Source: a virus
Lineage: Duplodnaviria; Heunggongvirae; Uroviricota; Caudoviricetes
Direction: 5' to 3' (one strand)
DNA length: 43,871 bases
IMG/VR virus record: IMGVR_UViG_2537561979_000006
The notes beneath the pieces are model-generated. The model searched no databases. It was not told the DNA's origin and saw nothing but the letters and a program-made list of their open reading frames with translations. Each line of letters starts with the position of its first letter. The stretch's first letter is position 1. The position numbers and the translations under genes were made by a program. This document shows positions 12,872 to 39,478 of the stretch, one piece after another.

Positions 12872-12875
12872 TCCA

Positions 12876-13187: not shown

Positions 13188-14211
<1,024 letters not shown>

Positions 14212-14573: not shown

Positions 14574-14786
14574 ATGTCTAACAAAATGACTGGTTTAGTG
14601 AAATGGTTTAACCCTGAAAAAGGTTTTGGTTTCATCACGCCGAAAGATGGCAGCAAAGATGTGTTTGTCCATTTCTCAGCAATTCAGAGCAACGATTTCA
14701 AAACATTAACTGAGAATCAGGAAGTTGAATTTGGTATTGAGAACGGACCTAAAGGTCCTGCCGCTGTTCATGTAGTGGCGCTTTGA
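14574..14786 (+). CDS. cspI: Cold-shock protein CspI-like
   Basis: 70-aa [26 protein letters not shown]...; long AT-rich leader. Confidence 0.85.
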
Positions 14787-14990
14787 GGTAGACAATATTA
14801 CAAACCATATTCACTTTAGATGCCCGTGTTGTCATGGTTCCCAGTATAGAACATCATCTTTTGATGTTTCTGACATGAATCCTTTCGGGGCAAAATGTAT
14901 CTTTTGTAAATCAATGATGATTACATTTGATAATATTTCACAATACTTAAATGCCAGCCGTCTGTCGTTGGATTTAAAAAAGTGAAAATG

Positions 14991-15015
14991 AAGGCTCCTT
15001 CGGGAGCCTTTTTAA
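14991..15015 (+). terminator. Rho-independent terminator at the Qin-like/P2-like junction
   Basis: GGCTCC-ttcg-GGAGCC followed by TTTTT. Confidence 0.6.
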
Positions 15016-20833: not shown

Positions 20834-21763
20834 ATGAGTGTTGCAAGACATCATCATTTTTTATCTCAATGTTATTTGAAAGGCTTTACAAGCAACGGGG
20901 GGAAAAAATCAAAATTAACTGTAATAGATTTAAAGGAGCGCAAAACTTTTGAAAGTAATACACGTAATGTCGGGGGTGTGAGAGATTTTAACCGATTAGA
21001 ATTGGATGGAGTTGATCCAAACTATCTCGAAAGTTCTCTTGCAGAGTTCGAAGGCAGTGTCGCCACTCATCTAAGGAAACTTGAGGAGGGCAAAGATTTT
21101 TCAGGCGAAACAAAAGATATCATTTTAGAGTTTATTTCCTTACTTGCGATACGCACGCCTGCTCAGCGAGAGCATTTATCATCGCCATTGAAACAAATAG
21201 CAAAGTTCATAATGAAATCTTCTGTTAGTTCGGCTGAGCGTTGGGAAGATTGCAAATTAGCTTATGAGAAAGAAAAGGGAGAGTCTTTGCCATATGATCT
21301 CGCTTACGAGAAAATTAAAGATTATGTTGATGGTGATAATTTCGAAATCAATGTAATCAGAGAGTTCATGATAGGCATGGAAATGCAATGTGTACCTGTA
21401 ATTGCTGAGCTGTTGCACCAACGCGACTGGTCACTTATGACCATATCTGATGGGCAAGGAACATTTATAACTTCAGATAACCCAGTTTGCTTAATGTGGA
21501 CTAATCCTGAATTATCACAAGGTCCTTATTCCCCGGGGTTTGGTCTAAAAGACACTTTAGTTTTGTTTCCAGTATCAAAAAATCTTCTTTTGGCAGGCGA
21601 GTTTGATGGTCATGAGGGGGTATTTAGTTGTAATGACGAGCAGGTTGCCATCTTTAACACTTCAGTCATCCGGCATACCGCAGAAAGAATTTTTTCAGCC
21701 AATGGAAATTTCCATTTTTTAGACGCAGCTAAAAGAATGAAGCAAGGTAAAAGCCTAGTTTGA
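20834..21763 (+). CDS. DUF4238-like protein; candidate anti-phage defence cargo
   Basis: 309 aa, AT-rich; N-terminal HHHFLSQCYLKGF and central FITSDNPV motifs resemble the DUF4238 signatures as I remember them; sits in the P2 A-to-cos (tin/old) cargo slot. Confidence 0.7.
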   Translation: MSVARHHHFLSQCYLKGFTSNGGKKSKLTVIDLKERKTFESNTRNVGGVRDFNRLELDGVDPNYLESSLAEFEGSVATHLRKLEEGKDFSGETKDIILEFISLLAIRTPAQREHLSSPLKQIAKFIMKSSVSSAERWEDCKLAYEKEKGESLPYDLAYEKIKDYVDGDNFEINVIREFMIGMEMQCVPVIAELLHQRDWSLMTISDGQGTFITSDNPVCLMWTNPELSQGPYSPGFGLKDTLVLFPVSKNLLLAGEFDGHEGVFSCNDEQVAIFNTSVIRHTAERIFSANGNFHFLDAAKRMKQGKSLV

Positions 21764-21978
21764 TAGTGGTTTTTTATGGGTTTCCGGGAAGAATTCTACT
21801 CTTAACCAGTGTTCGTAAAATGATTACCTGTTATAAGAGTTTTTCATTTTTAGGTGCGCCTAATAATGCATTTAATTGCATGTGGTTTTATAGGGGACGA
21901 TTCGCCTGCTCTATCCAGCGCTGGTGTGATTTCAATGCTAACGTGCATGTGCATCAAAATAGCCCCATTAAGCGGGCA

Positions 21979-21997
21979 GGCGAGGCGGGGATAGCAC
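21979..21997. other. P2-type cos site (19-nt cohesive-end sequence)
   Basis: GGCGAGGCGGGGATAGCAC, one mismatch from the P2 cohesive end GGCGAGGCGGGGAAAGCAC as I recall it; located just beyond the 3' end of Q as in P2. Confidence 0.6.
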
Positions 21998-22162
21998 TGC
22001 GCGCCGGGTGTGGTGACAGGATTTATTTTACGCGTCTGTGCGCGTCGTGGGGGCGCGCTGTGATGTGAAGTCGGTCAAGGTGATGTCGGGCGTTTGCGTC
22101 GCGTGCGCGGCGTCTGGCTTGCTCTGAGAATGTGCCGCCCGTAGGCGGCATTTTTGGCAGGT

Positions 22163-23189: not shown

Positions 23190-24959
23190 TTAGTTAATAT
23201 CCAGAATTGAACTTGATTGCATACCGCTTCCAGCGGAAAGCGGCTCGTTTAACAGGGCGTGCATGGTCGCCCACGCGATATCCGCGTGGCTGGCTTCCTC
23301 GCTGCGGCTGGCTTCATAGGTCGCGCTGCGGCCGCTGTTGGTCATGGTTTTGCGGATGGCCATAAATGACTGAGTGATGTCGGTCGCACCGGCGTCATAT
23401 TCCAGACATCCGCGCCTGATGGTGTCTTTCGCTTTCAGCACCATTGCGGTTTTCATTTCCGGCGTGTAGCGGATAGCGCGCGCCGCCGGGAAGAATGAGC
23501 GCACGAGCTGGTAAACACCCTGGCCGATGCCGGTCGCATCGATGCCGATATAGTCGACGGTGTATTTCTCGGTAAGCGCCCGGATGGCCTCGGCCTGTGC
23601 GGCAAAGTCCATGCCTTTCCACTGGTGACGCTCAAGGATGCGGAACTTGCCACCGGCAACCAGCGGCGGAGCCAGTACCGCACAGCCTGCGCTGTCACCG
23701 GTGTGTGACGGGTCGTAGCCAATCCAGACTGGGCGCCAGTTAAACGGACGGTCGGCGAACGGCTCGAAGTCCTCCCATTCTTCCATCGCATCGACCATGC
23801 AGCGCTGCAACTCCTCGAACGGGAATACCGACGCCTTGTCGTCGACGAACTCGCACATAAACAGGTTACGGAAGTCATCCGCGCTGTTTTCCTGCTTAAG
23901 CTGATCGAGGTTAAACAGGGTGCAGCCACCGGCGAGCGCATCCTCAATGGTGACAATCTGCCGCCACTGGCCGTCACCGCACAGCACGCCACCGGTAAGC
24001 GCCTGATGACTGATATCGATGTCGACACGTTCGTCGCGGTTGCTGCGGCCCCGGTTAAACAGCTCGCCTGACCAGAACGGGTAAGCGCCATGCGCCAGCG
24101 TCGATGGGGTCGAGAAATAGGTGGTGCGCAGGTGTGACTGCGAGGCCATGCCCGAGGCGACTTTGCGCAGCTTCTGAAAATTGGGGATCCAGAAAATTTC
24201 ATCGACATACAGGTCGCCGTTGTGGCTCTGCGCGGTGTTGGAATTGGTCCCGAGAAAAATCAGCTCAGCGCCATTGTTGCCGATGACGATCGGGTCGCCT
24301 GACAGGTCGACGTCAACCAGACGGGCAAAGGCGATGATGTACTTACGGAACACGTAAGCCTGCGTCTTACTGGCAGATAAAAATATCTGGTTTTGCCCGG
24401 TCTTAAGCGCGCGCAGGAGTGACTCGCGCGCAAAGTAGAACGTCGCGCCAATCTGGCGGGATTTCAGGATGTGGCGGATGCGGTGCTCTAACCCTGCTTT
24501 ATGCCAGCGGAGCTGATACCCAAACGACTGGTCGAAGAAAATCTCTTCCAGCTTTTCAATCGCTTCATCACTGAAGAAATTGCGTTTCGGCTTTTTGCGA
24601 TCCCCTTTGTTACGGCTGGCGATATTGGGGTTTAAATCCACCTCGTTTCCGGTCTGGCCGTAGCGGTTAATGCGCGCAAGCCGCTCCATCTGGCGCGACA
24701 AAAAGTCCGCGACTTTGAAGTCATACGCGGTCAGGTCTGGCTTAGCGTAGAGCTGGATAAGCCGCGCCTCTAATGTCGATTCCACGCGGTTAATCGGCGC
24801 GGTTTCTCCCCATCCATCCCGCTGTTTCCAGCTCTGCACGGTCGGGCGCTTGAGCTGCAGCATGTCGCAGATTTGCGGCACGGCGAACCCCTGCCAGTAC
24901 AACAGCCGCGCGCGCCGTCGCGGGTCATTTAACAGAGAAAGGTCAGTTGAAATGGTCAT
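23190..24959 (-). CDS. P: P2 gpP-like terminase large (ATPase) subunit
   Basis: About 589 aa from MTISTDLSLL...; P2 gene order. Confidence 0.85.
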   Translation of the reverse strand: MTISTDLSLLNDPRRRARLLYWQGFAVPQICDMLQLKRPTVQSWKQRDGWGETAPINRVESTLEARLIQLYAKPDLTAYDFKVADFLSRQMERLARINRYGQTGNEVDLNPNIASRNKGDRKKPKRNFFSDEAIEKLEEIFFDQSFGYQLRWHKAGLEHRIRHILKSRQIGATFYFARESLLRALKTGQNQIFLSASKTQAYVFRKYIIAFARLVDVDLSGDPIVIGNNGAELIFLGTNSNTAQSHNGDLYVDEIFWIPNFQKLRKVASGMASQSHLRTTYFSTPSTLAHGAYPFWSGELFNRGRSNRDERVDIDISHQALTGGVLCGDGQWRQIVTIEDALAGGCTLFNLDQLKQENSADDFRNLFMCEFVDDKASVFPFEELQRCMVDAMEEWEDFEPFADRPFNWRPVWIGYDPSHTGDSAGCAVLAPPLVAGGKFRILERHQWKGMDFAAQAEAIRALTEKYTVDYIGIDATGIGQGVYQLVRSFFPAARAIRYTPEMKTAMVLKAKDTIRRGCLEYDAGATDITQSFMAIRKTMTNSGRSATYEASRSEEASHADIAWATMHALLNEPLSAGSGMQSSSILDIN

Positions 24960-25125
24960 GCTTGCCTCGTTTTTGGTGTGACGTGGCAAGGCTAAGGAAA
25001 TAGGGGATTATTCGCGCTAAGTGCCTGTTGTGTCAGATCTAATCAGATCGTAAGCGGTGGCTGATGCGGGTCAGAGTCGGGAAACTAACCCCGACCCGAA
25101 AACCCAACATCAGGACACCTGAAAA

Positions 25126-25980
25126 ATGGCAAAGAAAGTTTCTAAATGGTTTCGCATCGGCGTCGAGGGTGACACCTGCGATGGCCGCGTCATCAGCGGC
25201 GATGATATTCAGGATATGGCCGACACGTTCGACCCGCGCGTCTACGGCTGCCGCATTAACCTCGAACATATCCGGGGGCTGATGCCTGACAGCCAGTTTA
25301 AACGTTATGGCGATGTGACCGAGCTTAAGGCGGAGATTATCAGCGATGGCTCTGCGCTCGATGGCAAAAAAGCGCTGTTTGGAAAAATCGCCCCGCTCGA
25401 CGAGCTGGTCAGCATGGTGAAGGCCGGACAGAAGGTTTACACCTCCATGGAGATCCGCCCGAACTTTGCCAACAGCGGCAAATGTTACCTCGTTGGCCTT
25501 GCCGTCACCGATGACCCGGCAAGTCTCGGCACCGAATACCTCGAATTCTGCAGCCGCGCTGCGCAGAACCCGCTCGCCGGTAAAAAAGACCAGCCGGACG
25601 ATGTTTTCTCTGTGGCCTCACTGGCTGTGCTGGAATTTGAAGACGTCCCCGACACCATGCTCAACAGTCTGACCGATAAGGTTAAGGCCATTTTCAGCCG
25701 CAAGCAGGCCAGCGATGACGCGCGTCTCGCCGATGTGCATGAGGCCGTGACCACCGTCACGGAACTGGTGCAGACCAACCTCACAGCCACCGACCAGCGC
25801 GTCACCGAGCTGGAGACCGAACTGGCGCAGCTTAAGCAGGACGTGACCAGCAAGGCCGAAGAAAGCGCGCAGGCGTTTAACGACCTCAAAAGCTCCCTCA
25901 ATAACACCGAAAGCCAGCGCCAGCCGCGCCGTGAGCTTTCAAAAGGCGGTACGGGCGACGAGCTGCTGACCAATTGCTGA
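25126..25980 (+). CDS. O: P2 gpO-like capsid scaffold protein
   Basis: 284 aa, same length as P2 O; acidic coiled-coil C-terminus. Confidence 0.85.
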   Translation: MAKKVSKWFRIGVEGDTCDGRVISGDDIQDMADTFDPRVYGCRINLEHIRGLMPDSQFKRYGDVTELKAEIISDGSALDGKKALFGKIAPLDELVSMVKAGQKVYTSMEIRPNFANSGKCYLVGLAVTDDPASLGTEYLEFCSRAAQNPLAGKKDQPDDVFSVASLAVLEFEDVPDTMLNSLTDKVKAIFSRKQASDDARLADVHEAVTTVTELVQTNLTATDQRVTELETELAQLKQDVTSKAEESAQAFNDLKSSLNNTESQRQPRRELSKGGTGDELLTNC

Positions 25981-26035
25981 TAACGCGCCGGGTGTGCTGC
26001 CCGGCCTGACCCCTTTTACCCGAACAGGAAAAACC

Positions 26036-27103
26036 ATGCGTAAAGATACCCGCTTCAAATTTAATGCCTACCTGTCCCGCGTCGCGGAGCTGAACGGTAT
26101 TTCCACCGATGACGTAGCGAAGAAATTCACCGTCGAGCCGTCGGTCACGCAAACCCTGATGACTACCCTGCAGATGTCATCCGCGTTTCTGACCAAAATC
26201 AACATCGTGCCGGTCGACGAGCTGAAAGGCGAAAAAGTCGGGGTGGGCGTTAACGGTACGATTGCGAGTACCGCCGACACCGCCGGTGATGATGAGCGTA
26301 AGACCGCTGACTTTACCGCGCTGGAGGCCAATAAATACGAGTGCGACCAGATTAACTTTGACTTCCATATCCGCTACAAACAGCTCGACCTGTGGGCGCG
26401 ATTCCAGGACTTCCAGACCCGTATCCGTGACGCCATCATCAAACGTCAGTCCCTCGATTTCATCATGGCCGGTTTCAACGGCATCGAGCGCGCGGCGACG
26501 TCCGACCGCAAAAAGAATCCGATGCTGCAGGACGTGGCGACAGGCTGGCTGCAGAAGTACCGCAGTGAAGCGCCAGCGCGCGTTATGTCAAAAATCACCG
26601 ACGAAGAAGGTGCGGTGATTTCTGAAGTGATCCGCGTGGGTAAAAACGGCGACTATGCGAACCTCGATGCGCTGGTCATGGATGCCACCGGCAACCTGAT
26701 TGACGAGATTTACCAGGATGACCCGGAGCTGGTTGTCATCACCGGGCGTAAGCTGATGGCGGATAAATATTTCCCGATCGTCAACAAAGAGCAGGCAAAC
26801 ACCGAGTCGCTGGCCGCTGACATCATCATCAGCCAGAAGCGAATCGGCAACCTGCCAGCCGTGCGCGTGCCTTACTTCCCGGCAGATGCGCTGATGGTGA
26901 CGCGTCTCGACAACCTGTCTGTCTACTTCATGGATGACGCGCACCGTCGCAGCATCATCGAAAACCCGAAGAAAGACCGCATCGAAAACTACGAGTCAAT
27001 GAATGTTGACTATGTGGTCGAGGCTTACGCCGCCGGTTGCCTGATTGAAAACATCAAGCTCGGTGACTTCACCGCACCTGCAGCAACGGAAAGCGGAGAG
27101 TAA
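26036..27103 (+). CDS. N: P2 gpN-like major capsid protein
   Basis: About 355 aa from MRKDTRFKFNAYL...; order O-N-M. Confidence 0.85.
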   Translation: MRKDTRFKFNAYLSRVAELNGISTDDVAKKFTVEPSVTQTLMTTLQMSSAFLTKINIVPVDELKGEKVGVGVNGTIASTADTAGDDERKTADFTALEANKYECDQINFDFHIRYKQLDLWARFQDFQTRIRDAIIKRQSLDFIMAGFNGIERAATSDRKKNPMLQDVATGWLQKYRSEAPARVMSKITDEEGAVISEVIRVGKNGDYANLDALVMDATGNLIDEIYQDDPELVVITGRKLMADKYFPIVNKEQANTESLAADIIISQKRIGNLPAVRVPYFPADALMVTRLDNLSVYFMDDAHRRSIIENPKKDRIENYESMNVDYVVEAYAAGCLIENIKLGDFTAPAATESGE

Positions 27104-27106
27104 GCC

Positions 27107-27862
27107 ATGACGAGTCCCGCAGCGCGTCACATGATGCGGGTCTCGGCCTCTGAAACAGCGCAGCGGGCTGCCGTCCCGCTGCGCAATGCAACTGCCTATG
27201 AGCAGATGCTCGTTAAGCTGGCCGCAGACAACCGCACGCTGAAACAAATCAGCTCCAAAGAGCGCAAAGCCGCGAAAAAGCGCGAGCTGCTGCCGTTCTA
27301 CCTGCCGTGGGTCGCTGGCGTCCTAGCAAACGGCAAAGGCGTACAGGATGACATTGTCATGACGGTGATGCTCTGGCGTCTTGATGCTGACGATATCGCT
27401 GGGGCGCTGGAAATCGCCCGTTACGCCATGACCTACGGCCTCACCATGCCGGTCGGTCGCCGTCCGACGCCGTGCCTGCTGGCCGAAGAAGTGGCACTGG
27501 CCGCGCAGCGCCTGCTCACGGCAAAACAGCCGGTCAATCTGGCGAACCTGCTCGACACTATCGCGCTGACTGAACGCGCGGATATGCCCGATATCGTGCG
27601 TGCGAAGCTGCACAAAATCACCGGCTACGTGCTGCGTGATGCGGAGCAACTGCCCGAGGCGCTGGCGCACCTGCAGCGTGCGATCCAGTTAGAAAGCACT
27701 ATCGGTGTGAAAAAGGATATCGAGCAGTTAGAGCGTCAGCTCAGGCCAAAACCCGAACCGGCACCGAAAACCAAAACGACTAAACCGCGCACGCGCAAGC
27801 CTGCCGCCAAACCGGCGGCACGACGCGGGCGTCCACCAAAGGCGGCAAAAGTCGCAGGTTAA
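27107..27862 (+). CDS. M: P2 gpM-like terminase small/endonuclease subunit
   Basis: 251 aa with a basic, lysine/proline-rich C-terminal tail. Confidence 0.8.
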   Translation: MTSPAARHMMRVSASETAQRAAVPLRNATAYEQMLVKLAADNRTLKQISSKERKAAKKRELLPFYLPWVAGVLANGKGVQDDIVMTVMLWRLDADDIAGALEIARYAMTYGLTMPVGRRPTPCLLAEEVALAAQRLLTAKQPVNLANLLDTIALTERADMPDIVRAKLHKITGYVLRDAEQLPEALAHLQRAIQLESTIGVKKDIEQLERQLRPKPEPAPKTKTTKPRTRKPAAKPAARRGRPPKAAKVAG

Positions 27863-27961
27863 ACGAGCGCTCCCCGAGCCGGGCGGCACGCCGGTTAATG
27901 CGGGTATCAATTGCCCTGACTGCGACCGGCGTCCACCGCCCACCCATTACCCGAGGTTGTC

Positions 27962-28467
27962 ATGACGACACTGATTATTGAGCCAAAAAAAGAGCCGCAG
28001 GACGTGCCGGGCGTGGTGATACCGCCACCTGGCGTGAGCGAGCCGGTAATCAAAAACACCCCGTTTTTCCTGACGTTGATCCGAAGCGCGTGCGGGAAGA
28101 AATGCGACTGGAGCAGACCGTTTCCCCCGTGCGCCTGCGCCGGGCGATTAAGACCGCGATCGCGGAGACTAACGCGGAGCTGAGCGACTGGCGCGAAAGT
28201 CAGCTCGATGCCGGTTACGCCACGCTGGCGGAAGTCCCGACCGACAAGCTCGACGGCGAAAGCGTGCGCGTTTTCCACTACTTCAACGCCGTGTGCTCGA
28301 TGACGACGGCCACGCTTTATGAACGTTTTCGCGGCGTGGATGCGACCACCAAAGGGGACAAAAAAGCCGACAGCATCGACAGTACTATCGATGAAATGTG
28401 GCGGGATATGCGCTGGTCTGTGGCGCGCATCCAGGACAAAGCGCGCTGCATTGTGGGGCAAATCTGA
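27962..28467 (+). CDS. L: P2 gpL-like head completion protein, apparently frameshifted
   Basis: The span 27962-28467 is 506 nt, not a multiple of 3. The N-terminal part is in one frame (27962-28183) and the rest in another (to 28467); the switch maps to a T5 run at 28064-28068, and one extra T would give a continuous ~169-aa protein. Confidence 0.7.
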
Positions 28468-28670
28468 TGAAAGCGTATGCGCTGCAGGGCGACACCCTCG
28501 ACGCGATTTGCGCCCGGTACTACGGGCGCACTGAGGGCGTGGTCGAAACCGTCTTAGAGGCTAATCCCGGCCTGTCTGAGCTCGGTGTGATCCTGCCACA
28601 CGGCACGGTAGTAGAATTGCCCGAGACCGAGAGCGCGGCCAGTACCGAAACGGTGAATCTATGGGACTGA
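28467..28670 (+). CDS. X: P2 gpX-like tail protein
   Basis: 67 aa from MKAYALQGDTLDAICARYYG..., same length as P2 X; its start overlaps the L stop (TGATG). Confidence 0.8.
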   Translation: MKAYALQGDTLDAICARYYGRTEGVVETVLEANPGLSELGVILPHGTVVELPETESAASTETVNLWD

Positions 28671-28672
28671 GT

Positions 28673-28882
28673 ATGGAAAAAATCACCACGTTTATCGCCT
28701 ACTGGCTGGCCGTGGGGCTGGCGTATGTCGGGGCAATGTCGCCCGAAAAGATGGCGCTATACGTGGGTGGCGGATGCGCCATTTTTACCGCGCTGACGAA
28801 CTACTGGTTTAAGCGCAAGACGTACCTCTACCTGACATCGCTCGGACTCGATAAAGGGGCTATTCGTGAAATCAATCGTTAA
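28673..28882 (+). CDS. Putative holin in the P2 lysis cassette
   Basis: About 69 aa with two TM segments, directly upstream of the endolysin. Confidence 0.65.
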   Translation: MEKITTFIAYWLAVGLAYVGAMSPEKMALYVGGGCAIFTALTNYWFKRKTYLYLTSLGLDKGAIREINR

Positions 28883-29375
28883 AAAATGCAGTGTGGCCGC
28901 CGTGCTGGCGCTGGCAGCGCTTATGCCTGACTTTCGTCTGCTTAACACCTCGCCCGGGGGGCTGGCGCTGATTGCCGACCTCGAAGGTTGTCGCCTGACG
29001 CCTTACCAGTGCAGCGCGGGAGTGTGGACGTCGGGCATCGGCCACACTGCAGGCGTCGTACCAAAGGGGGAAATCACCGAGCGGCAGGCGGCGGCGAATC
29101 TCGTCGCGGATGTGCTGAACGTCGAGAAACGTCTGGCCGTGTGCGCGCCGGTGAAAATGCCGCCGCATGTTTACGACGCGCTGGTCAGCTTCTCATTCAA
29201 CGTGGGAACCGGTGCGGCCTGCCGGTCGACGCTGGTCTCGTTTATCAAACGCCAGCAATGGCCGCAGGCGTGCGACCAGCTCACCCGCTGGGTTTATGTG
29301 AATGGCGAAGTTAACAAAGGGCTGGAGAATCGCCGCGCGCGCGAGCGTACCTACTGCCTCAGGGGGATTCAATGA
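28866..29375 (+). CDS. K: P2 gpK-like endolysin (lysozyme), possibly SAR-type
   Basis: 169 aa; hydrophobic N-terminus then EGCRLTPYQCSAGVWTSGIGHT catalytic region. Confidence 0.8.
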   Translation: MKSIVKKCSVAAVLALAALMPDFRLLNTSPGGLALIADLEGCRLTPYQCSAGVWTSGIGHTAGVVPKGEITERQAAANLVADVLNVEKRLAVCAPVKMPPHVYDALVSFSFNVGTGAACRSTLVSFIKRQQWPQACDQLTRWVYVNGEVNKGLENRRARERTYCLRGIQ

Positions 29376-29797
29376 AAGTGATGTTGTTTTTACTGGCTGC
29401 GCTGATGGCGGTTGTGCTCTGGCAGCGTCATGAAAACGGCAACCTGACGCGCTCGTTTGAACGGGCGAACAGGGTCGCCACGGAACAAAAAACCGCGATC
29501 GGAATGCTGAAAAATCAGCTTTCCGTTTCGCAGGGCATTGCCAGGCGAAATGAAACCGCGCAGGTCAGTTTACGCGGCGAACTGCTGGCCGCAGGTGCGA
29601 TGGCCGTGCGGCGTGAACAAACCATTACGAGGCTGATAAATGAGAATGAAACCTTACGCCGCTGGTATAGCGCTGAACTGCCTGATGTTGTGCGCAGGCT
29701 GCACATCCGCGCCGGTTGCGCCTCCGCCGGTCATTGTTTACAGCACCTGCCCGAAGGTCAGCTATTGCCCGATGCCTGGAAGCGAGCCAGTAATTAA
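29372..29797 (+). CDS. lysB: LysB-like i-spanin
   Basis: 141 aa with N-terminal TM, in P2 order after K. Confidence 0.75.
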   Translation: MKVMLFLLAALMAVVLWQRHENGNLTRSFERANRVATEQKTAIGMLKNQLSVSQGIARRNETAQVSLRGELLAAGAMAVRREQTITRLINENETLRRWYSAELPDVVRRLHIRAGCASAGHCLQHLPEGQLLPDAWKRASN

Positions 29798-29930
29798 TGG
29801 CGACCTGAGTGCTGATATTCGCAGGCTCGAGCACGCGCTCGCGGCCTGCGCGCTGCAGGTTGAAACCGTCAAAGACTGTCAGGATAAACTCGATGAAGAA
29901 AGCACGCAGCCTGCGCGAAGCGCTGATTAA
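29640..29930 (+). CDS. lysC: LysC-like o-spanin lipoprotein
   Basis: 96 aa overlapping the lysB 3' end in another frame; signal peptide with Cys (LMLCAGC); proline-rich. Confidence 0.65.
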   Translation: MRMKPYAAGIALNCLMLCAGCTSAPVAPPPVIVYSTCPKVSYCPMPGSEPVINGDLSADIRRLEHALAACALQVETVKDCQDKLDEESTQPARSAD

Positions 29931-30360
29931 AGCCGTTCCGCAGCTTGAAACGAACCCCGAAATGATGCGCATCTTTGCCGATGAGGGGAATATCGATGCA
30001 CGTCTCGCGGCCTCGCTGTCGCACGAGAAAATTTATACGCTGAATGTGATCGTGTGTGACTTTGTGGGCGACCCTGATCTGATTTTCGTGCCGGTGGCCG
30101 CATGGCTCAGGGAAAACCAGCCGGATATCTGCACGCTCGATGACGGCCGCATAAAGGGCTACCGTTTCCAGATGGATTTGAACGACGGGGACAGCATCGA
30201 TATCAGTATCAGCCTGCAGCTCACTGAGCGAACCCTCATCAAAGAGGAAAACGGCGCGCTGCACGTAAGCTATGCCCCTGAGCCGCCGCTGCCGGAGCCC
30301 GCCACCCGGCCAAAAGAGCTCTATATCAACGGCGAACTGGTGAGCAAATGGGATGAGTGA
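29893..30360 (+). CDS. R: P2 gpR-like tail completion protein
   Basis: 155 aa from MKKARSLREAL..., same length as P2 R. Confidence 0.8.
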   Translation: MKKARSLREALIKAVPQLETNPEMMRIFADEGNIDARLAASLSHEKIYTLNVIVCDFVGDPDLIFVPVAAWLRENQPDICTLDDGRIKGYRFQMDLNDGDSIDISISLQLTERTLIKEENGALHVSYAPEPPLPEPATRPKELYINGELVSKWDE

Positions 30361-30814
30361 ATTTAAGCCCTTTGACGACAGGCTCGATGGTCTGATTGCT
30401 GCCCTGTCACCGGCAGCGCGCCGGAAGCTGGCCGGTGAGATAGCAAAAGAGCTGCGCAAGGCGCAACAACAACGCATCAAACAGCAAAAAGCCCCGGATG
30501 GCTCGCCGTATCAGGCGCGAAAGCGTCAGCCTCTCAGGGCTAAGAGCGGACGGATTAAACGGGCGATGTTCCAGAAGCTCCGCACCAGCCCCTACATGAG
30601 AGCCACTGGCAGTGAAAATAGTGCTGTTGTGGAGTTTACCGGTAAAGTGCAGCGCATCGCGCGTGTCCACCAGTATGGTCTTGAGGATCGGCCAAACTCC
30701 TACGCCAGTAACGTGCAATATGCAAAACGCCAGCTACTCGGTTTGAGTCGGTACGATAAAGATTTTATTGAAGATATTATCTATGGTTATTTAGATTGCA
30801 ATATGTATTTGTAA
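30353..30814 (+). CDS. S: P2 gpS-like tail completion protein
   Basis: 153 aa; the last ~20 codons are AT-rich, suggesting the moron boundary lies within the 3' end. Confidence 0.8.
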   Translation: MSEFKPFDDRLDGLIAALSPAARRKLAGEIAKELRKAQQQRIKQQKAPDGSPYQARKRQPLRAKSGRIKRAMFQKLRTSPYMRATGSENSAVVEFTGKVQRIARVHQYGLEDRPNSYASNVQYAKRQLLGLSRYDKDFIEDIIYGYLDCNMYL

Positions 30815-31098
30815 ATAAGATTTAAGTGTGTTATGTGTTGTATTTATTGCCAGTAAGTCATAAATGTTCTATCTTCACTATCTAATTGTCTTGGGTGTTT
30901 TTATATTATTTGATTGTGATGGGGTAATGTCCTCATTACACCTTTTTCGATAACATGTTCGGGAGTCTAGGCGTTTGCCGTATTAGAACGATTTTTTTAA
31001 ATTAGCATATCAGATTTATTGTGATAGATATGTTTTTGTTGTATTTTTAACACCCTCAGATTTTTCTTTCCCTTTTTTAAATTTTAACATGTTGTGCT

Positions 31099-32913
31099 TT
31101 GATGAATGGAGTTAGAATGAAGATAATAAATGCTTTATTTTCGACAGTAACGGTTGACCTAAAAAGAAAAACTTTTTATTTGGATTTGTTATTTCTGTTT
31201 GTTTGTGTATGGACGCTAATAGCCTCAGGTTCGGAGGCTCAATATTATCTCTTTAAGTTTATTAATAGTGATAGTTCAACACTCTACGGTAGTGTATTTG
31301 AAGATGCGATTGCGCGTATACCAACCTTTAATGAGTATGTTAAAGGTGCTTATTCATTTTCCGGCAGTTATGGTTTTTTAGCTGCTCTGATTATAGTTGT
31401 TGTGGCTTTATTTTATCAGACTACTGTTCAAATATTTATAGTTAGTATTATTAGTTCGGCGTTTGGGCTAACAGTAACGGATTTCTTGATGTTTGCTTTT
31501 AATGGAACTCTAACGACACAAGCAATGATAGAGTGTGTTATGGCAAACGCTTTGGGGTCACCTATAATTGCAAGCTTTATTGTTTTGCTTTTTTATATAA
31601 AAAAGTTTTTATTTAATGTGTCAAGCATTAATCTGGCTCTCAGGTATATATCAAATTATGTTGTTTACTCAATAATTTGTTTTTTGATTTTGTTTGTTAC
31701 TTACTATATCGTGTGTTTCTTTTATAGACCTACAGCAGTAAATTTTTCAGTCTCTACGTCTGAAGAGTTTTCTGGTGATTACTTCCTAAGTGATAAGAAT
31801 GATGTCTTAAAAGAAGCTAAGGGTTCTTTGTTAAAAGATCGATTTTCGCTATTAAACTCACCAGTAAAGTTAAATGGAACAATAAATGTTTTTGGTGAGA
31901 TCGATTCTATACTCTCAAAATTTAATGCGAGCGATGTCTATACTGTAAGAGTCTTGCCTTTATTAAACTGTATTGATGGGGGGGCAATTAATGCAGCGCT
32001 TGCTGACTATTTAAGTTATGAAGGCGTAAGGGGGTTTTCTATTAAATCTTCAGAATCAATGACTTTGATTACCTTTGGTGATAAGGCGGGATATGTTAAA
32101 AGTAATGATGAGCTCGTTAATATGTTTACTGTCAAAAAAAATAATAAATCGGGGTTTGATATTACTAAAGTTAATGATGGAGTGTTTAGTTATTATCCTT
32201 CTGAATCGAGTGGGAGCATGTATGTCGCTACTGGAGTGACTGATTTTAAAGGTGACCAGAGTAAGAAGGAAGTGAAGTACACGTTGGATGTAAATGGTGT
32301 GAAAAAAATATTCCATGTGGATGTGAGTAGGCTGCGCGCGAAAAATGCAGAAAGAAAATTACAGTGTCAAATTGCTTCATTCACAAGTTCATCCAACGAT
32401 GTATACATTGATGCAGGAGAGGCTGTATATGTTGGCGTACTTATCAAACCTATTCTTAATCAAAAGAATGAATATTTTTCACTTTTTAGCGAACGTGATA
32501 ATAAATTCGACGTCAAAGGGAAATTGCTATATGTACAGGCAAAAAATGTTTCGCGAGAAAACGTAGTAGGGCATTATGTTACAAAGGGATATTTGAACGG
32601 CTTTATTCTTCATTCCTTTGATAAGTTATCAATAGATGGGAAGAATGTTGAATCAAATAAAATGGATAATCTAATGGTGATGGGGGAGGGGATTTATGGG
32701 CATGTATCTGCGGACAATAATTTAGTTATTAGTGGTAAAGCCGATCTCTTCTATAAAAATAGATTGCGGCAAAACAAAACCTTATGGGAAACTTCGAGTG
32801 ATAATACATTAATCTTGGGTGGTATTGGAGCTTTAATGGTTTCCTTGTTGTTGTGGTGTGTAAATAGAATATATTCCTCTTTGAAGAAAAATGAAGTTAT
32901 TAATAGTTTTTAA
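31099..32913 (+). CDS. Polytopic membrane protein of unknown family encoded by an AT-rich moron
   Basis: 598-604 aa (probable start at the ATG at 31117, which has a GGAG RBS); about five N-terminal TM helices, a ~350-aa hydrophilic domain and a C-terminal TM anchor; strongly AT-rich; terminator-like hairpin 13 nt downstream. Confidence 0.75.
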   Translation: MMNGVRMKIINALFSTVTVDLKRKTFYLDLLFLFVCVWTLIASGSEAQYYLFKFINSDSSTLYGSVFEDAIARIPTFNEYVKGAYSFSGSYGFLAALIIVVVALFYQTTVQIFIVSIISSAFGLTVTDFLMFAFNGTLTTQAMIECVMANALGSPIIASFIVLLFYIKKFLFNVSSINLALRYISNYVVYSIICFLILFVTYYIVCFFYRPTAVNFSVSTSEEFSGDYFLSDKNDVLKEAKGSLLKDRFSLLNSPVKLNGTINVFGEIDSILSKFNASDVYTVRVLPLLNCIDGGAINAALADYLSYEGVRGFSIKSSESMTLITFGDKAGYVKSNDELVNMFTVKKNNKSGFDITKVNDGVFSYYPSESSGSMYVATGVTDFKGDQSKKEVKYTLDVNGVKKIFHVDVSRLRAKNAERKLQCQIASFTSSSNDVYIDAGEAVYVGVLIKPILNQKNEYFSLFSERDNKFDVKGKLLYVQAKNVSRENVVGHYVTKGYLNGFILHSFDKLSIDGKNVESNKMDNLMVMGEGIYGHVSADNNLVISGKADLFYKNRLRQNKTLWETSSDNTLILGGIGALMVSLLLWCVNRIYSSLKKNEVINSF

Positions 32914-32925
32914 TTGATTCAGGAA

Positions 32926-32946
32926 GGCGGGTTCGTCCGCCTTTCT
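32926..32946 (+). terminator. Terminator-like hairpin after the moron gene
   Basis: GGCGG-gttcgt-CCGCC followed by TTTCT; the T-tract is weak. Confidence 0.45.
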
Positions 32947-33033
32947 AATAATCTCAATTCCTTGCCTGTTGTTCCATTCCTGACAAAACTTCGCTCGATT
33001 GCCGATGAATTTACCAAGCGGCATCCTTTCCCC

Positions 33034-33675
33034 ATGAATAATCTAAATTCTCTGCAGGAAATCGCACGCGCGATCCGCAACCTTATCCGCACCGGCATCG
33101 TGACCGACGTCGACCACGACGAGGGGCTGTGTCGTGTCCAGACCGGCGGCATGCAAACCACCTGGCTGAACTGGCTGGCCTGTCGCGCCGGTCGCTCGCG
33201 CGTATGGTGGGCTCCGTCCGTCGGCGAGCAGGTGCTTGTACTTGCTGTCGGCGGCGAGCTCGATACGGCCTTTGTGCTGCCCGGCATTTTCTCTGACGAC
33301 AATCCCGCGCCGTCAGCCTCCCCTGATGCGTTTCACATGTCCTTTCCTGACGGGGCGGTTATCGAGTATGAGCCCGAAAACGGCGCGCTCACCGTGTCAG
33401 GTATCAAAACCGCTGACGTCACCGCGTCGGATTCCATTACGGCCACCGTACCGGTGGTGCTGGTGAAAGCGTCGAGTCGTATCACGCTCGATACGCCGGA
33501 GGTGGTTTGCACCAACAAGCTTACGACCGGCACGCTCGAAGTGCTGAAAGGCGGGAAGATGAGCGGGAGCATCGAGCACACCGGCGGGATACTGAAATCA
33601 AACGGCGTGCAGGTGGATAACCACGCGCACGGCAACGTACAGAGCGGCGGAAGCTGGACAAAGGGGACGCAATGA
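33034..33675 (+). CDS. V: P2 gpV-like baseplate spike protein
   Basis: About 213 aa from MNNLNSLQEIARAIRNLIRTG...; conserved spike core. Confidence 0.85.
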   Translation: MNNLNSLQEIARAIRNLIRTGIVTDVDHDEGLCRVQTGGMQTTWLNWLACRAGRSRVWWAPSVGEQVLVLAVGGELDTAFVLPGIFSDDNPAPSASPDAFHMSFPDGAVIEYEPENGALTVSGIKTADVTASDSITATVPVVLVKASSRITLDTPEVVCTNKLTTGTLEVLKGGKMSGSIEHTGGILKSNGVQVDNHAHGNVQSGGSWTKGTQ

Positions 33676-34022
33676 CGGTGCGTTATCTGGGAATGAACAG
33701 CCGGACCGGCCTCAGTATCTCTGAGGTTGAGCACATCCGGCAAAGCGTGCGCGACATTCTGGTCACGCCGGTTGGGTCGCGTGTCATGCGCCGTGAATAC
33801 GGCTCGCTCCTGTCGCAGATGATTGACCAGCCGCAGACCCCGGCGCTGCGCCTGCAGATTATGGCCGCGTGCTATTCCGCGATCCAGAAGTGGGAGCCAC
33901 GCGTAGACCTCTCGACCATTACCTTTGAACGGTCGGAGACCGACGGCGGGCTGTATGTCGACATCACCGGCACCCGCTCGACCGGCGGCCAGCCATTTTC
34001 CATCACCATTCCACTGAGTTAA
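33672..34022 (+). CDS. W: P2 gpW-like baseplate wedge protein
   Basis: 116 aa against 115 for P2 W; order V-W-J-I. Confidence 0.85.
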   Translation: MTVRYLGMNSRTGLSISEVEHIRQSVRDILVTPVGSRVMRREYGSLLSQMIDQPQTPALRLQIMAACYSAIQKWEPRVDLSTITFERSETDGGLYVDITGTRSTGGQPFSITIPLS

Positions 34023-34028
34023 ATCACT

Positions 34029-34937
34029 ATGGCAACCGTTGACCTGAATCAGTTACCCGTTCCCGATGTGGTGGAAGAACTGGACTTTGAAACCATTCTT
34101 GCCGAACGCATTGCGACGCTAATTTCACTCTATCCTGAAGACCAGCAGGAGGCCATTGCCCGGACGCTCACACTTGAATCAGAGCCGATTGTTAAGCTGT
34201 TACAGGAAAACGCCTATCGTGAAGTTATCTGGCGTCAGCGTGTGAACGAAGCCGCGCAGGCGGTAACGCTGGCCTATTCAACCGGTCGCGACCTTGACGT
34301 TGTGGCCGGGAACAATAATACCGGACGCCTGACCATTACCCCTGCTGATGACACCACCATACCGCCAACGCCTGCCGTTATGGAATCAGATGCTGACCTG
34401 CGACTGCGCACACAACAAGCTTTTGAAGGATTAAGTGTGGCGGGTCCGGTTGGCGCTTATGAGTATCACGGTCGAAGCGCTGACGGACGGGTCGCCGACG
34501 TCTCTGTCGAAAGCCCGTCGCCCGCCTGCGTGACGATTTCCGTGTTATCCCGTGAGGGTGACGGCACCGCGAGCCCTGAGTTACTGGCAATCGTTGAAAA
34601 AGCACTGAACGCCGAAGATGTGCGCCCGTTGGCTGACCGGGTGACCGTCCAGTCAGCCGAAATTGTGCCGTACCAGATTGACGCGACGATATACGTTTAC
34701 CCCGGTCCCGAATCTGAACCCATCAGGCAGGCCTCAGAGCAGAAGCTGCAGAGTTATATCAGCGCGCAGCACCGCCTCGGGCGTGATATCCGGCTGTCAG
34801 CCATTTACGCGGTGCTGCATGTTGAGGGGGTACAGCGTGTCGAGCTGGCATCACCACAGGCCGATATTGTGCTGAGCAAGTCGCAGGCGTCGAACTGTAC
34901 CGAGTACCAGATAACTATCGGGGGCTCGGATGAGTGA
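34029..34937 (+). CDS. J: P2 gpJ-like baseplate protein
   Basis: 302 aa, same length as P2 J. Confidence 0.85.
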   Translation: MATVDLNQLPVPDVVEELDFETILAERIATLISLYPEDQQEAIARTLTLESEPIVKLLQENAYREVIWRQRVNEAAQAVTLAYSTGRDLDVVAGNNNTGRLTITPADDTTIPPTPAVMESDADLRLRTQQAFEGLSVAGPVGAYEYHGRSADGRVADVSVESPSPACVTISVLSREGDGTASPELLAIVEKALNAEDVRPLADRVTVQSAEIVPYQIDATIYVYPGPESEPIRQASEQKLQSYISAQHRLGRDIRLSAIYAVLHVEGVQRVELASPQADIVLSKSQASNCTEYQITIGGSDE

Positions 34938-35538
34938 CCGGCTGTTACCCGTTGGCTCGTCGCCGCTGGAGGTTGCCGCCGCTGCCGCGCTCTCTGAGAT
35001 TCAGCGCGTGCCGGTAACGCTCCGCACTCTGTGGAACTGGCGCACCTGCCCGGTAAACCTGCTGCCGTATCTGGCGTGGGCGCTGTCGGTCGACCGGTGG
35101 GATGAGAAGTGGCCGGAGGCGACAAAGCGCAGCGTCTGCGCATCTTCGTTTTTCGTCCATCAGCACAAAGGCACCATCAGCGCATTGCGTCGGGTGGTTG
35201 AGCCGCTCGGCTTTCTGATTGAGGTGCGCGAGTGGTGGCAGCTCAACGAGGCGCCAGGCACTTTCCGCCTCGTTGTCGGCGTGCTCGACAGCGGCATCAC
35301 TGATGAAATGTATCAGGAGCTCGAGCGCCTGATTGATGACGCCAAACCGGCAAGCCGCCACCTCACCGGGCTGGCTATCAGCCTGAGTGCCACCGGCGAG
35401 CTGTATGTCGGCGCGGGATGCTACGACGGCGACGCGCTCACCGTTTACCCCTACACCCCCGAGGAAATTGTCGTCGGCGGTGAATATTACCCGGCCTCGG
35501 CCATCCATTTGATTGATAACCTGAGAGTGAACGCATGA
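34930..35538 (+). CDS. I: P2 gpI-like baseplate protein
   Basis: 202 aa, in order after J. Confidence 0.8.
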   Translation: MSDRLLPVGSSPLEVAAAAALSEIQRVPVTLRTLWNWRTCPVNLLPYLAWALSVDRWDEKWPEATKRSVCASSFFVHQHKGTISALRRVVEPLGFLIEVREWWQLNEAPGTFRLVVGVLDSGITDEMYQELERLIDDAKPASRHLTGLAISLSATGELYVGAGCYDGDALTVYPYTPEEIVVGGEYYPASAIHLIDNLRVNA

Positions 35539-36521
35539 CCGCAAAATATTTAGCCATTCTGACCAATCAGGGCGCGGCGCGGCTGGCGAACGCGGCGGCA
35601 CTCGGTACCAGACTAAACCTGACGCAGATGGCCGTCGGTGATGCGAATGGTACGCTGCCTACACCTGACCCGGCGCAGACGAAGCTCATTAACCAGAAGC
35701 GCATCGCGCCGCTGAACCTGCTGAACGTTGATCCGGCCAATACCAGCCAGATTATCGCGGAACAAATTATTCCCGAGAATGAGGGCGGTTTCTGGATCCG
35801 AGAGATTGGTCTCTACGATGATGAGGGGATTCTGATTGCCGTGGCAAACTGCCCGGAGACCTACAAACCGCAACTGCAGGAGGGAAGCGGCCGCACGCAG
35901 ACCATTCGCATGATTCTGATTGTGTCGAGCACGTCGGCCGTTACCCTGAAAATCGACCCGTCGGTGGTGCTGGCAACGCGGCAGTATGTCGAGGATAAGG
36001 TTATCGAGGTGAAAGCCTATGCCGATAATCTGCTGGCCGCACACCTCGCCGCTGCAGACCCGCACACGCAATACCTCAAAACGGCGGATATTGATAAATA
36101 CATTCCGGTCGGTTTTCCGCTGCCGTGGCCGCAGGCAACACCGCCGGAGGGCTGGCTTAAATGCAACGGCGCGGTTTTTGACAAGGTGAAATATCCAAAG
36201 CTGGCTGTCGCTTATCCATCCGGTAAATTGCCTGACTTGCGCGGTGAGTTTTTGCGAGGGTGGGATGACGGGCGCGGGATAGACAATGGACGAGCGCTAT
36301 TATCCGCTCAGGTCGGCTCTGGAGTTGGGATGTTCCTCGGTGGTCATTCAGATGGGACCGCATATATCCCATTGAGTGATTTCGACAGCGTTGTCGACAA
36401 CAGCCCGTCATGGTCACATGTAAATACCGCAGGGCTGATTTCTTCAATTGGTGGTCAACGGTCATCATTCGGCGCTCGCCCACGCAACATTGCATTTAAC
36501 TACATCGTGAGGGCGGCATAA
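35535..36521 (+). CDS. H: Tail fibre protein (gpH position), short chimeric form
   Basis: 328 aa against ~669 for P2 H; the C-terminus ends ...[14 protein letters not shown], the conserved ending shared with lambdoid side tail fibres. Confidence 0.75.
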   Translation: MTAKYLAILTNQGAARLANAAALGTRLNLTQMAVGDANGTLPTPDPAQTKLINQKRIAPLNLLNVDPANTSQIIAEQIIPENEGGFWIREIGLYDDEGILIAVANCPETYKPQLQEGSGRTQTIRMILIVSSTSAVTLKIDPSVVLATRQYVEDKVIEVKAYADNLLAAHLAAADPHTQYLKTADIDKYIPVGFPLPWPQATPPEGWLKCNGAVFDKVKYPKLAVAYPSGKLPDLRGEFLRGWDDGRGIDNGRALLSAQVGSGVGMFLGGHSDGTAYIPLSDFDSVVDNSPSWSHVNTAGLISSIGGQRSSFGARPRNIAFNYIVRAA

Positions 36522-37117
36522 TGGCAAAAGCGACACTTAACAAACAGGGCATTACCACAAAAGCCGGTGATATGACGGTTTATAACTATGACGGTGAAAC
36601 CCGCGAATATCTGACGTCCTCTGTCGAGTTTCTGGCGCTGGGCGTGGGGATTCCTGCTAATTCCTGCACCGATGCACCGGTCGAAAAAAAGGAGGGTTTC
36701 GCGGTGTGCCGAGCGGCCAGTCTTGACGGGTGGGAGTATGTCGCAGACCATCGCGGTGAGACGGTTTATGACACGGAAACCGGTCAGCCGGTCAACATTA
36801 CCGCACCCGGTGACTATGCCCCCGGTGTAACTACGTTTGCACCGTCTACCCCCTGTGACCGCTGGAACGGTAGCGAATGGGTCACGGATAAGGACGCGCA
36901 GAAAAACGGTCAGGTTAAGGAGGCAGAACAGAAAAAATCCGCGCTGCTGAATAAGGCACAAAGCACTATCAGCCTGTGGCAGACTGAGCTGCAGCTCGGC
37001 ATCATCAGCGACGATGACAAGGCCAGCCTGATTGCGTGGATGAAATACATTCAGTCGCTGAACGTGATCGACACCTCTGCTGCGCCGTATATTGAGTGGC
37101 CGGAAAGACCTGAATAA
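36521..37117 (+). CDS. G: Tail fibre assembly chaperone (gpG/Tfa family)
   Basis: 198 aa; conserved Tfa C-terminus (DDDKASLIAWMKYIQSLNVIDTSAAPYIEWPERPE). Confidence 0.8.
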   Translation: MAKATLNKQGITTKAGDMTVYNYDGETREYLTSSVEFLALGVGIPANSCTDAPVEKKEGFAVCRAASLDGWEYVADHRGETVYDTETGQPVNITAPGDYAPGVTTFAPSTPCDRWNGSEWVTDKDAQKNGQVKEAEQKKSALLNKAQSTISLWQTELQLGIISDDDKASLIAWMKYIQSLNVIDTSAAPYIEWPERPE

Positions 37118-37122
37118 ACGAA

Positions 37123-37146
37123 GCCCTCCACCCGGAGGGCTTTTTT
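37123..37146 (+). terminator. Rho-independent terminator after G
   Basis: GCCCTCC-accc-GGAGGGC followed by TTTTTT. Confidence 0.7.
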
Positions 37147-37240
37147 GTATGTTGTGTTATCCCTCCACCAACGGCATTGCATCGCGCCTGCGCGACACAC
37201 AACAGAAAATAGTCGCACCCCTAACCACGGAGTTAAACAG

Positions 37241-38434
37241 ATGGGCGACTATCATCACGGCGTCGAGGTCATCGAGATTAATGATGGCACGCGCACCATT
37301 TCCACCGTCTCGACGGCCATCATCGGCATGGTCTGCACGGCCAGCGATGCTGACGCAAAGACATTCCCCCTGAACGAGCCGGTGCTGATTACCAGCGTGC
37401 AAACGGCGATCGGTAAGGCCGGTAAAAAAGGCACGCTGGCAAAATCCCTGCAGGCCATTGCCGACCAGTGCAAGCCGGTCATTGTGGTGGTGCGCGTTCC
37501 CGAAGGTGTCGACGACCCGTCAGACCCGGAAGCGGCGCAGAAAGAAACCATTTCCAACATCATCGGCACGACCGACGAAAACGGCAAATACACCGGGCTG
37601 AAAGCGCTGTTAACAGCGAAAACCGTCACCGGTGTTAAGCCGCGCATTCTCGGCGTGCCGGGCGTGGATACGCAGGAAGTGGCGACCGCTCTTGCGTCGA
37701 CCTGCCAGAGCCTGCGCGCGTTCGGCTATGTGAGCGCGTGGGGCTGCAAGACCATTTCCGACGCCATTAAATACCGTGAGAACTTCAGCCAGCGCGAGCT
37801 CATGGTCATTCACCCTGATTTTCTGGCATGGGACACCACGGCGAACGAAACCGATATTGCATGGGCGACCGCCCGCGCGCTCGGCCTGCGCGCCAGAATC
37901 GACCAGGATACCGGCTGGCACAAAACGCTGTCCAACGTCGGCGTGAATGGCGTCACCGGCGTCAGCGCCTCGGTCTCATGGGATTTGCAGGAGCAGGCCA
38001 CCGACGCCAACCTGCTGAATCAGGCCGGGGTGACAACGCTCATCCGCAACGATGGCTTTAAATTCTGGGGTAACCGAACCTGCTCGGACGATCCATTATT
38101 CGTGTTTGAAAACTACACCCGCACGGCGCAGGTGCTGGCCGACACGATGGCGGAAGCGCACGCGTGGGCGATGGATAAGCCCGTTTCTGCAACGCTCATC
38201 CGCGACATCGTCGCCGGTATCAATGCCAAATTCCGCGAGCTGAAAAACAACGGCTATATCGTTGACGGCTCCTGCTGGTACGACCCGGAGTCAAACAGCG
38301 TGGAAACCCTCAAAGCCGGGAAACTGTATATCGATTACGACTACACCCCCGTCCCGCCGCTGGAAAACCTGACCCTGCGCCAGCGCATCACCGATACCTA
38401 TCTGGCAGACCTGTCAGACTCGGTCAACAGCTAA
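37241..38434 (+). CDS. FI: P2 gpFI-like tail sheath protein
   Basis: About 397 aa from MGDYHHGVEVIEINDGTRTIS...; 396 in P2. Confidence 0.9.
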   Translation: MGDYHHGVEVIEINDGTRTISTVSTAIIGMVCTASDADAKTFPLNEPVLITSVQTAIGKAGKKGTLAKSLQAIADQCKPVIVVVRVPEGVDDPSDPEAAQKETISNIIGTTDENGKYTGLKALLTAKTVTGVKPRILGVPGVDTQEVATALASTCQSLRAFGYVSAWGCKTISDAIKYRENFSQRELMVIHPDFLAWDTTANETDIAWATARALGLRARIDQDTGWHKTLSNVGVNGVTGVSASVSWDLQEQATDANLLNQAGVTTLIRNDGFKFWGNRTCSDDPLFVFENYTRTAQVLADTMAEAHAWAMDKPVSATLIRDIVAGINAKFRELKNNGYIVDGSCWYDPESNSVETLKAGKLYIDYDYTPVPPLENLTLRQRITDTYLADLSDSVNS

Positions 38435-38446
38435 GGAGCTCAGAGC

Positions 38447-38965
38447 ATGGCGTTACCACGCAAACTGAAATACCTGAACATGTTTAACGACGGTCTCAGC
38501 TACATGGGCGTCGTTGAATCCGTCACCCTGCCAAAGCTGACCCGCAAGCTTGAGAAATATCGCGGCGGCGGGATGCCGGGCTCGGTGTCTATTGACCTCG
38601 GCCTCGACGACGACGCGCTGTCGCTTGAGTGGACGCTGGGCGGCCTGCCTGACGTCGCGCTGTGGGCGCAGTATGCGTCACCGGGTGCCGACAGCGTGCC
38701 GCTGCGCTTCACCGGCTCATTCCAGCGCGATGATACCGGCGCAATTTCCGCCGTTGAGGTGGTCATGCGTGGCCGTCACAAGGAGTACGACGGCGGCGAG
38801 AACAAACAGGGCGAAAGCGGCACGACCAAAATCGCGACCGAGTGCTCGTATTACCAGCTCACGATTGACGGCAAAGAGGTCATCGAGATTGACGTCGTCA
38901 ACATGGTGATGAAAGTCGACGGCGTTGACCGTCTCGCTGAGCACCGCCGGGCGATTGGCCTGTAA
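38447..38965 (+). CDS. FII: P2 gpFII-like tail tube protein
   Basis: 172 aa, same length as P2 FII. Confidence 0.9.
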   Translation: MALPRKLKYLNMFNDGLSYMGVVESVTLPKLTRKLEKYRGGGMPGSVSIDLGLDDDALSLEWTLGGLPDVALWAQYASPGADSVPLRFTGSFQRDDTGAISAVEVVMRGRHKEYDGGENKQGESGTTKIATECSYYQLTIDGKEVIEIDVVNMVMKVDGVDRLAEHRRAIGL

Positions 38966-39025
38966 CCCGTTAACCGGTCAGCCAGGCTGGCCGGTCACTT
39001 ACTCACATTCAAAGAGAGCAACATC

Positions 39026-39334
39026 ATGGAAAACATCAACGAAACCGCCACCATCGAAACCGAAAACCCAAACATTGTGATCCTCGATAATCCAATCATG
39101 CGCGGTGAGCAAAAAATCGAACAGGTGACCGTGTCCAAACCCAACGCCGGTACTCTGCGCGGTGTGAGTCTGGCCTCGCTGGCAAACTCTGACGTCGATG
39201 CGCTGATTAAGGTGCTGCCGCGCATGACGTACCCGGCGCTGACCGAGCCCGAGGTCATGCGTCTGGAAGCATCAGACCTGATTTTGTTCGCCGGTAAGGT
39301 GGTCGGTTTTTTGTCGCCATCTTCGGCTCGCTGA
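39026..39334 (+). CDS. E: P2 gpE-like tail assembly chaperone
   Basis: 102 aa; carries a slippery T6G tract near its 3' end. Confidence 0.8.
   Translation: MENINETATIETENPNIVILDNPIMRGEQKIEQVTVSKPNAGTLRGVSLASLANSDVDALIKVLPRMTYPALTEPEVMRLEASDLILFAGKVVGFLSPSSAR
39307..39313 (+). promoter_or_regulatory. Slippery site for the programmed -1 frameshift giving E+E'
   Basis: T TTT TTG heptamer in X XXY YYZ register; the -1 frame stays open from here to a stop at 39486-39488, overlapping the T start, as in the P2 E/E' arrangement. Confidence 0.65.
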
Positions 39335-39478
39335 CGTTCCCGGACAACCTTTCGGTCGATGACCTGATGGCGGATATCGCGGTGATATTTCACTGGCCGC
39401 CATCAGAGCTGAATTCCCTGAGCGTGACCGAGCTCATCACATGGCGCGAAAAGGCGCTGCAGCGAAGCGGACACCACC

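Follow-up and report, generated by a model that had tools for sequence, protein, structure and literature searches.

The locus described here raises the question of why head completion gene L of a P2-like prophage is divided between two reading frames, and whether the division lies in the bacterial genome or in its deposited sequence. The DNA analyzed, called the window in the following, is a stretch of 43,871 nucleotides whose source is scaffold GL872107.1 of the Escherichia coli TA007 assembly GCA_000190975.1, with which it is 100% identical where the two were compared. In the deposited sequence, a missing T in a T-run breaks gene L. Our preferred explanation, to which we assign a probability of about 0.8, is that the missing T is a homopolymer-length miscall in this old draft assembly; the true TA007 genome would then probably carry a run of six Ts (T6) and an intact gpL of 168 aa.

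The P2-like prophage and its position in Qin

The TA strains are Australian animal isolates of a Broad Institute sequencing project (PMC4422515). Positions 1-15013 of the window are the cryptic prophage Qin (dicA, dicC, relBE, hokD, cspF, cspB, rrrQ, rzpQ, cspI, and ymcF), and the P2-like prophage follows with its integrase gene (15093-16136, minus strand). After the integrase come the repressor, cox, the replication genes, a DUF4238 gene, Q, P, O, N, M, L, and X, and after X the lysis genes, R, S, a 598-aa orphan, V, W, J, I, H, G, FI, FII, E/E', and T, which is the last gene of the P2-like block and ends at 41926. According to the gene tables of the source scaffold and of relatives, L has the P2-type synteny, with O, N, and M preceding it and X as its immediate downstream neighbour.

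The original prediction had taken L for the P2-type head completion gene, and this identification stands on its location between small terminase gene M and tail gene X as well as on a full match to PF05926 after repair of the reading frame. Both properties are shared with P2 gpL and the phage 186 head-tail adaptor (PF05926), from which the present gene differs in that, in this record, the absence of a base in codons 35-36 divides its ORF. The other head genes had been judged intact, which is borne out by their products: Q, P, O, N, and M encode 341, 589, 284, 355, and 251 aa, respectively, the sizes found in intact relatives. The gpL protein joins the DNA-filled head before tail attachment (PMC7552001).

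The element is truncated at its far end. Similarity to complete relatives (L073, L074, L076, and L078) ends at 41934, which is 8 nt past the stop codon of T; the complete relatives go on with U, D, and ogr, all of which are absent from the window. What follows 41934 is a tail-fibre remnant and then a Caudo_TAP gene (42058-42633), a Pin-type invertase gene (42731-43321, minus strand), and a YnaE-family gene, which together are the far side of Qin (tfaQ/pinQ). Since three further assemblies (L075, L077, and L079) carry the same junction at 41934, the deletion of U, D, and ogr is real. Judging from P2 biology, an element that has lost tail genes U and D as well as the late activator Ogr would be unable to make virions.

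The left junction (14991-15013) lies just after ymcF, at a terminator-like hairpin (AAGGCTCCTTCGGGAGCCTTTTT), and other assemblies have a complete prophage at the same left junction. Near-identical prophages were found in many draft E. coli assemblies at this Qin site and once elsewhere (L083). None of 5,426 complete E. coli genomes matched the L region (27900-28520 of the window) above 82% identity, and the isolated phage closest to the prophage is Enterobacter phage ENT4. The distribution suggests a P2-like phage of Enterobacter type that circulates among some E. coli.

Reading frames of gene L

The span of L (27962-28467) is 506 nt. Around 28055-28075 the window reads directly as AAC ACC CCG TTT TTC CTG ACG, in which the run of five Ts (T5) occupies 28064-28068 (plus strand). 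A ribosome-binding site, GAGG (27953-27956, plus strand), is located 5 nt 5' of the ATG of L (27962-27964) and is the same in relatives. Translation from this ATG gives the 5' part of the protein (MTTLIIEPKK...VIKNTPFF; 27962-28069, plus strand), and the number of codons before the frame switch, previously put at 35, is 36. If ribosomes keep the ATG frame, they read an out-of-frame tail (LTLIRSACGK...; 28070-28183, plus strand) and stop at TGA 28181-28183, so that the product is 73 aa, the last 37 of which are out of frame. The -1 frame is open from upstream of the T-run through TGA 28465-28467 and reads PVFPDVDPKRVREEM; its translation includes PVFPDVDPKRVREEMRLEQ. By translation and by the match to PF05926, this frame supplies the 3' part of L, i.e., residues 37-168 (PDVDPKRV...CIVGQI) together with the TGA (28069-28467, plus strand).

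When one T was added to the T5 run in silico, a 507-nt ORF resulted. The expectation that one extra T restores a full-length protein was thus correct, and its size, given as about 169 aa, is 168 aa. The repaired protein matches PF05926 (Phage_GPL) over profile positions 1-139 of 139 (E 2.7e-50, 170 bits), whereas the 125-aa ORF downstream of the break matches positions 15-139 only, the first 14 positions being absent. No Pfam match was obtained for the 73-aa product of the ATG frame, and this product was not found in a collection of 15 billion proteins. A search of PDB sequences with repaired L gave no match. The single uninterrupted ORF of about 165-169 aa that is expected of Phage_GPL is split here at 28064-28068. 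The window has 80 T5 runs and a single one is unremarkable; the frameshift was inferred from homology in two frames, not from the T-run itself.

GenBank annotates solely the ORF of L that starts with GTG at 28090 (EGB68996.1, 125 aa), and this product is present in exactly one contig of the public collections, GL872107.1. Tail gene X (28467-28670, plus strand; PF05489, Phage_tail_X) begins with an ATG that overlaps the stop codon of L (TGATG), and through this overlap its translation is probably coupled to that of L. A 184-aa antisense ORF (27907-28461) was also considered and was rejected as a GC-rich shadow ORF, which is uncalled in the source scaffold and in the relatives that have gene tables.

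Gene L in related genomes

Among all loci compared, 71 of 72 related copies have T6 at the L site, and the sole copy with T5 is TA007's own record (L005). By alignments and tallies, the T5 run is one T shorter than in all relatives. A pattern scan of genome and viral contig collections, in which run lengths of 4 to 8 were allowed, found 66 loci, all of them in frame; beyond the 71 copies with T6, 9 of the pattern-matched loci have an in-frame TTTTAC at this site. Loci L003, L073, and L080 (GCA_041099655.1) match the window at every other base of L. At a greater distance, Enterobacter phage ENT4 (92.9% identical) also has T6, and a prophage of E. coli A15 (81.8%) has one base more at the site than the window, its L being annotated as an intact head completion protein of 168 aa. 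The placement of the frameshift at 28064-28068 with the loss of one T, as originally proposed, is supported both by the two reading frames and by the alignments with T6 relatives.

The protein comparisons give the same picture. Residues 1-168 of repaired L align with the proteins of ENT4 (93.5%) and phage 186 (70.2%); 213 protein homologues of L are almost all 165-169 aa in length and cover the whole query; and repaired L was matched as one piece in 425 of 425 phage records. Since the homologues are single ORFs and the related copies are in frame, L is not naturally split, and T5 is private to one strain. One of the cases named beforehand as a refutation, namely, that homologues would show L to be two ORFs by nature, did not materialize, and such a natural split was accordingly rejected.

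Possible translation across the break

A different possibility is that the break is harmless at the protein level, with L being expressed across it by a -1 slip or working as two polypeptides. A slip of tRNA-Phe from UUC (28067-28069) to UUU (28066-28068) would restore exactly the wild-type TPFFPDVD, and 5-16 nt downstream the RNA can fold into a hairpin (-31.7 kcal/mol). A virion needs few copies of a head completion protein. Nevertheless, we consider this possibility highly improbable. The two-frame arrangement of L occurs in 0 of 71 relatives, and the Pfam domain loses its conserved start through the break. The site, G_TTT_TTC (zero frame CCG TTT TTC), is not of the X_XXY_YYZ type, and only one tRNA would re-pair on it. 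The hairpin has a z of -1.68, with 12 of 200 shuffled sequences folding as well, and the T6 relatives, in which no frameshift is required, have the identical hairpin. For transcriptional slippage, a run of five Ts is too short.

A direct comparison is provided by the prophage itself, which contains the programmed -1 frameshift of the P2-type E/E+E' genes. A T-run and a -1 shift are common to E/E' and L, but the E/E' site has an in-phase heptamer (T_TTT_TTG, 39307-39313), which is conserved in relatives and has conserved domains in both frames, whereas the site in L is non-canonical and found in one assembly only. At E/E', furthermore, 6 of 7 relatives covering the site have the T6 of the window. 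This heptamer is located where tail chaperone gene E ends; the GpE-domain ORF lies in the -1 frame, and the site is intact here. Programmed or tolerated -1 frameshifting in L was rejected on the grounds that its site is unconserved, its heptamer non-canonical, and its downstream fold not significantly better than those of shuffled sequences.

There remains the narrower case in which T5 is real and some full-length gpL nevertheless arises, because tRNA-Phe would slip by -1 on UUU-UUC without any programmed signal. A low yield would be enough, as a head needs only about a dozen copies of the protein, and L would then be a structural phage gene with a leaky homopolymer lesion. We give this case very little credence.

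Differences private to the TA007 assembly

We then asked what else is private to the window. Against the closest relative, GCA_041099655.1, the 20.9 kb of positions 10834-31761 show two differences, both of which are single-T contractions in the window (28064 and 31073), and positions 24031-41934 show the same two contractions, one substitution private to the relative, and GGGCG in place of GGGGC at 37660-37664. Over the combined 31 kb (10834-41934), zero substitutions are private to the window. In the whole 43.9 kb, five window-private events were found (4271, 28064, 31073, 37660-37664, and 42021), each shortening a homopolymer run. Candidate private substitutions number at most one, at 4035 (Ala to Thr, near the dicA lesion), for which two references were checked.

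At 4271-4275 (minus strand), the A-run in codons 3-5 of dicA has five bases, not six (A5 versus A6), which appears as T5 versus T6 on the strand of the window. The dicA gene, encoding the Qin repressor (3877-4283, minus strand), is 407 nt long and frameshifted, with an ORF of 101 aa; in E. coli O15_8X it is annotated as intact with 135 aa. The second event besides that in L is T6 instead of T7 at 31073-31078 (plus strand), which is intergenic and 5' of the 598-aa gene; 12 relatives have T7, and T6 was found in TA007 and the assembly behind L075 only. The third (37660-37664, plus strand) lies in sheath gene FI (37241-38434) and changes Leu to Val. Here GGGGC is present in 11 of 11 relatives, the G-run of the window has lost one base while a G stands after the following base instead, and the variant sheath protein was found in the NCBI record of TA007 only. 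At the fourth (42021-42024, plus strand), in the tail-fibre remnant that follows T, the window has A4 and the three relatives sharing the region have A5; an exact look-up of the 76-aa ORF spanning 42021 found nothing on record. The private differences other than the one in L are therefore of the same type as that in L, with few or no substitutions beside them.

The L075 assembly has several homopolymer discrepancies of its own, including T5 in the E/E' slippery run.

A second assembly of TA007 reads

When the truncated products were looked up by exact match, two contigs in the Logan assembly of public run SRR024333 turned up. Over 4.15 kb and 7.03 kb they agree with the window at all positions but one (1 in 11.2 kb), and they repeat both T5 in L and A5 in dicA. 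The run-length change in L is thus confined to one strain, because GCA_000190975.1 and the Logan assembly of SRR024333 are both TA007. The sole disagreement between the two assemblies is A6 in Logan versus A7 in the window at 27985, inside L; since this is again a homopolymer length, run lengths in the TA007 data are unreliable.

T5 is probably the majority call in the SRR024333 reads, not a mere slip of the assembler. The recurrence of T5 in L and of A5 in dicA counts against a miscall, as a real deletion would also give this result. However, the same reads are probably behind both assemblies, and the reproduction of T5 is therefore of little help in telling a systematic error of the platform from a true deletion.

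Origin of the missing base

TA007 was presumably sequenced by pyrosequencing (454) in a 2010-11 project of the Broad Institute; no statement of its sequencing platform was found in the literature on the assembly, the strain name, or sister strains. In pyrosequencing, run length is obtained from signal intensity and tends to be undercalled, and incomplete extension in flow-based sequencing is expected to turn GGGGC into GGGCG. Real mutation in E. coli is dominated by substitutions, which exceed indels several-fold even without mismatch repair. Five run contractions versus zero or one substitution are therefore very unlikely as biology and point to homopolymer miscalling, an artefact of the kind that had been named beforehand as a refuting case; the private run-length discrepancies would then arise from the sequencing chemistry. 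Against a miscall, homopolymers are also natural hotspots for real indels.

An excess of homopolymer frameshifts, especially in A/T runs, has been documented for 454 assemblies of isolates (PMC3277595), and two broken genes of roughly 60 fit this published excess. The case of L resembles the frameshifts of the pyrosequencing era in being a single-base undercall in a run of at least five, found in one assembly together with a displaced base and essentially no substitutions. It differs from the documented artefacts in that the platform of TA007 is a presumed one and that T5 is repeated by a second assembly of one public run.

The main competitor of a miscall is a real one-base slippage deletion private to the strain, by which L would be a pseudogene in a prophage already unable to make virions. 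Besides the recurrence of T5 in the assembly of run SRR024333, the state of the element speaks for this reading: the prophage is cut 8 nt past the stop codon of T and U, D, and ogr are replaced by tfaQ/pinQ of Qin, which would leave L without selection, and the element is nested in another cryptic prophage. Because selection is relaxed without U, D, and ogr, a lesion in L, if real, would be tolerated or neutral. A known parallel is the pseudogenes in cryptic prophages of E. coli (Qin and Rac, for example), the P2-like element, which is nested in Qin, likewise being without U, D, and ogr; in contrast to such decay, the rest of its P2-like genes hardly differ from their counterparts in complete relatives and have no signs of nonsense or missense decay. 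Moreover, L075, L077, and L079 have the same truncation and yet T6, and thus the lesion is not shared across the lineage with the defective prophage. Five private contractions versus at most one substitution are far from the mutation spectrum of E. coli, all five events are contractions, and the displacement of GGGGC to GGGCG is hard to explain as mutation. We therefore regard a real deletion as unlikely, although clearly less so than expression of L across the break. None of the three explanations for the break is novel.

If the deletion were real, translation would stop at 28181-28183 after 73 aa without a functional gpL, and the coupled translation of X would probably fall; even so, T5 would be just a private null allele in a prophage lacking U, D, and ogr. 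With homopolymer miscalling as the preferred explanation, the locus is primarily a matter of quality control. The 125-aa "phage head completion protein" of TA007 in GenBank (EGB68996.1) and the broken dicA are probably products of base-calling and not of biology. Pseudogene counts are inflated by records of this kind, which can also be misread as signs of a decaying prophage or of recoding.

Other features of the window

Compared with E. coli O15_8X, about 1.6 kb of Qin is absent at 4653-4655 of the window, comprising a ydaT-family toxin gene and the gene for replication protein O. The deletion site is located between dicC and the DUF977 and methyltransferase genes.

The P2-like prophage contains two genes of low GC content. 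Replication gene A and portal gene Q flank a cargo gene of about 40% GC (20834-21763, plus strand), which has an end-to-end match (E 2.5e-217) to DUF4238-Pers, a candidate defence model of PADLOC; for a 102-aa ORF (21760-22068) that overlaps it, no family match was obtained. The 598-aa orphan (31117-32913, plus strand; 32-35% GC) between tail genes S and V had no match in Pfam or PADLOC and is kept in all close relatives. In GCA_958333945.1 (L004, L078, and L082), this orphan is split by A5 versus A6 at window position 31599.
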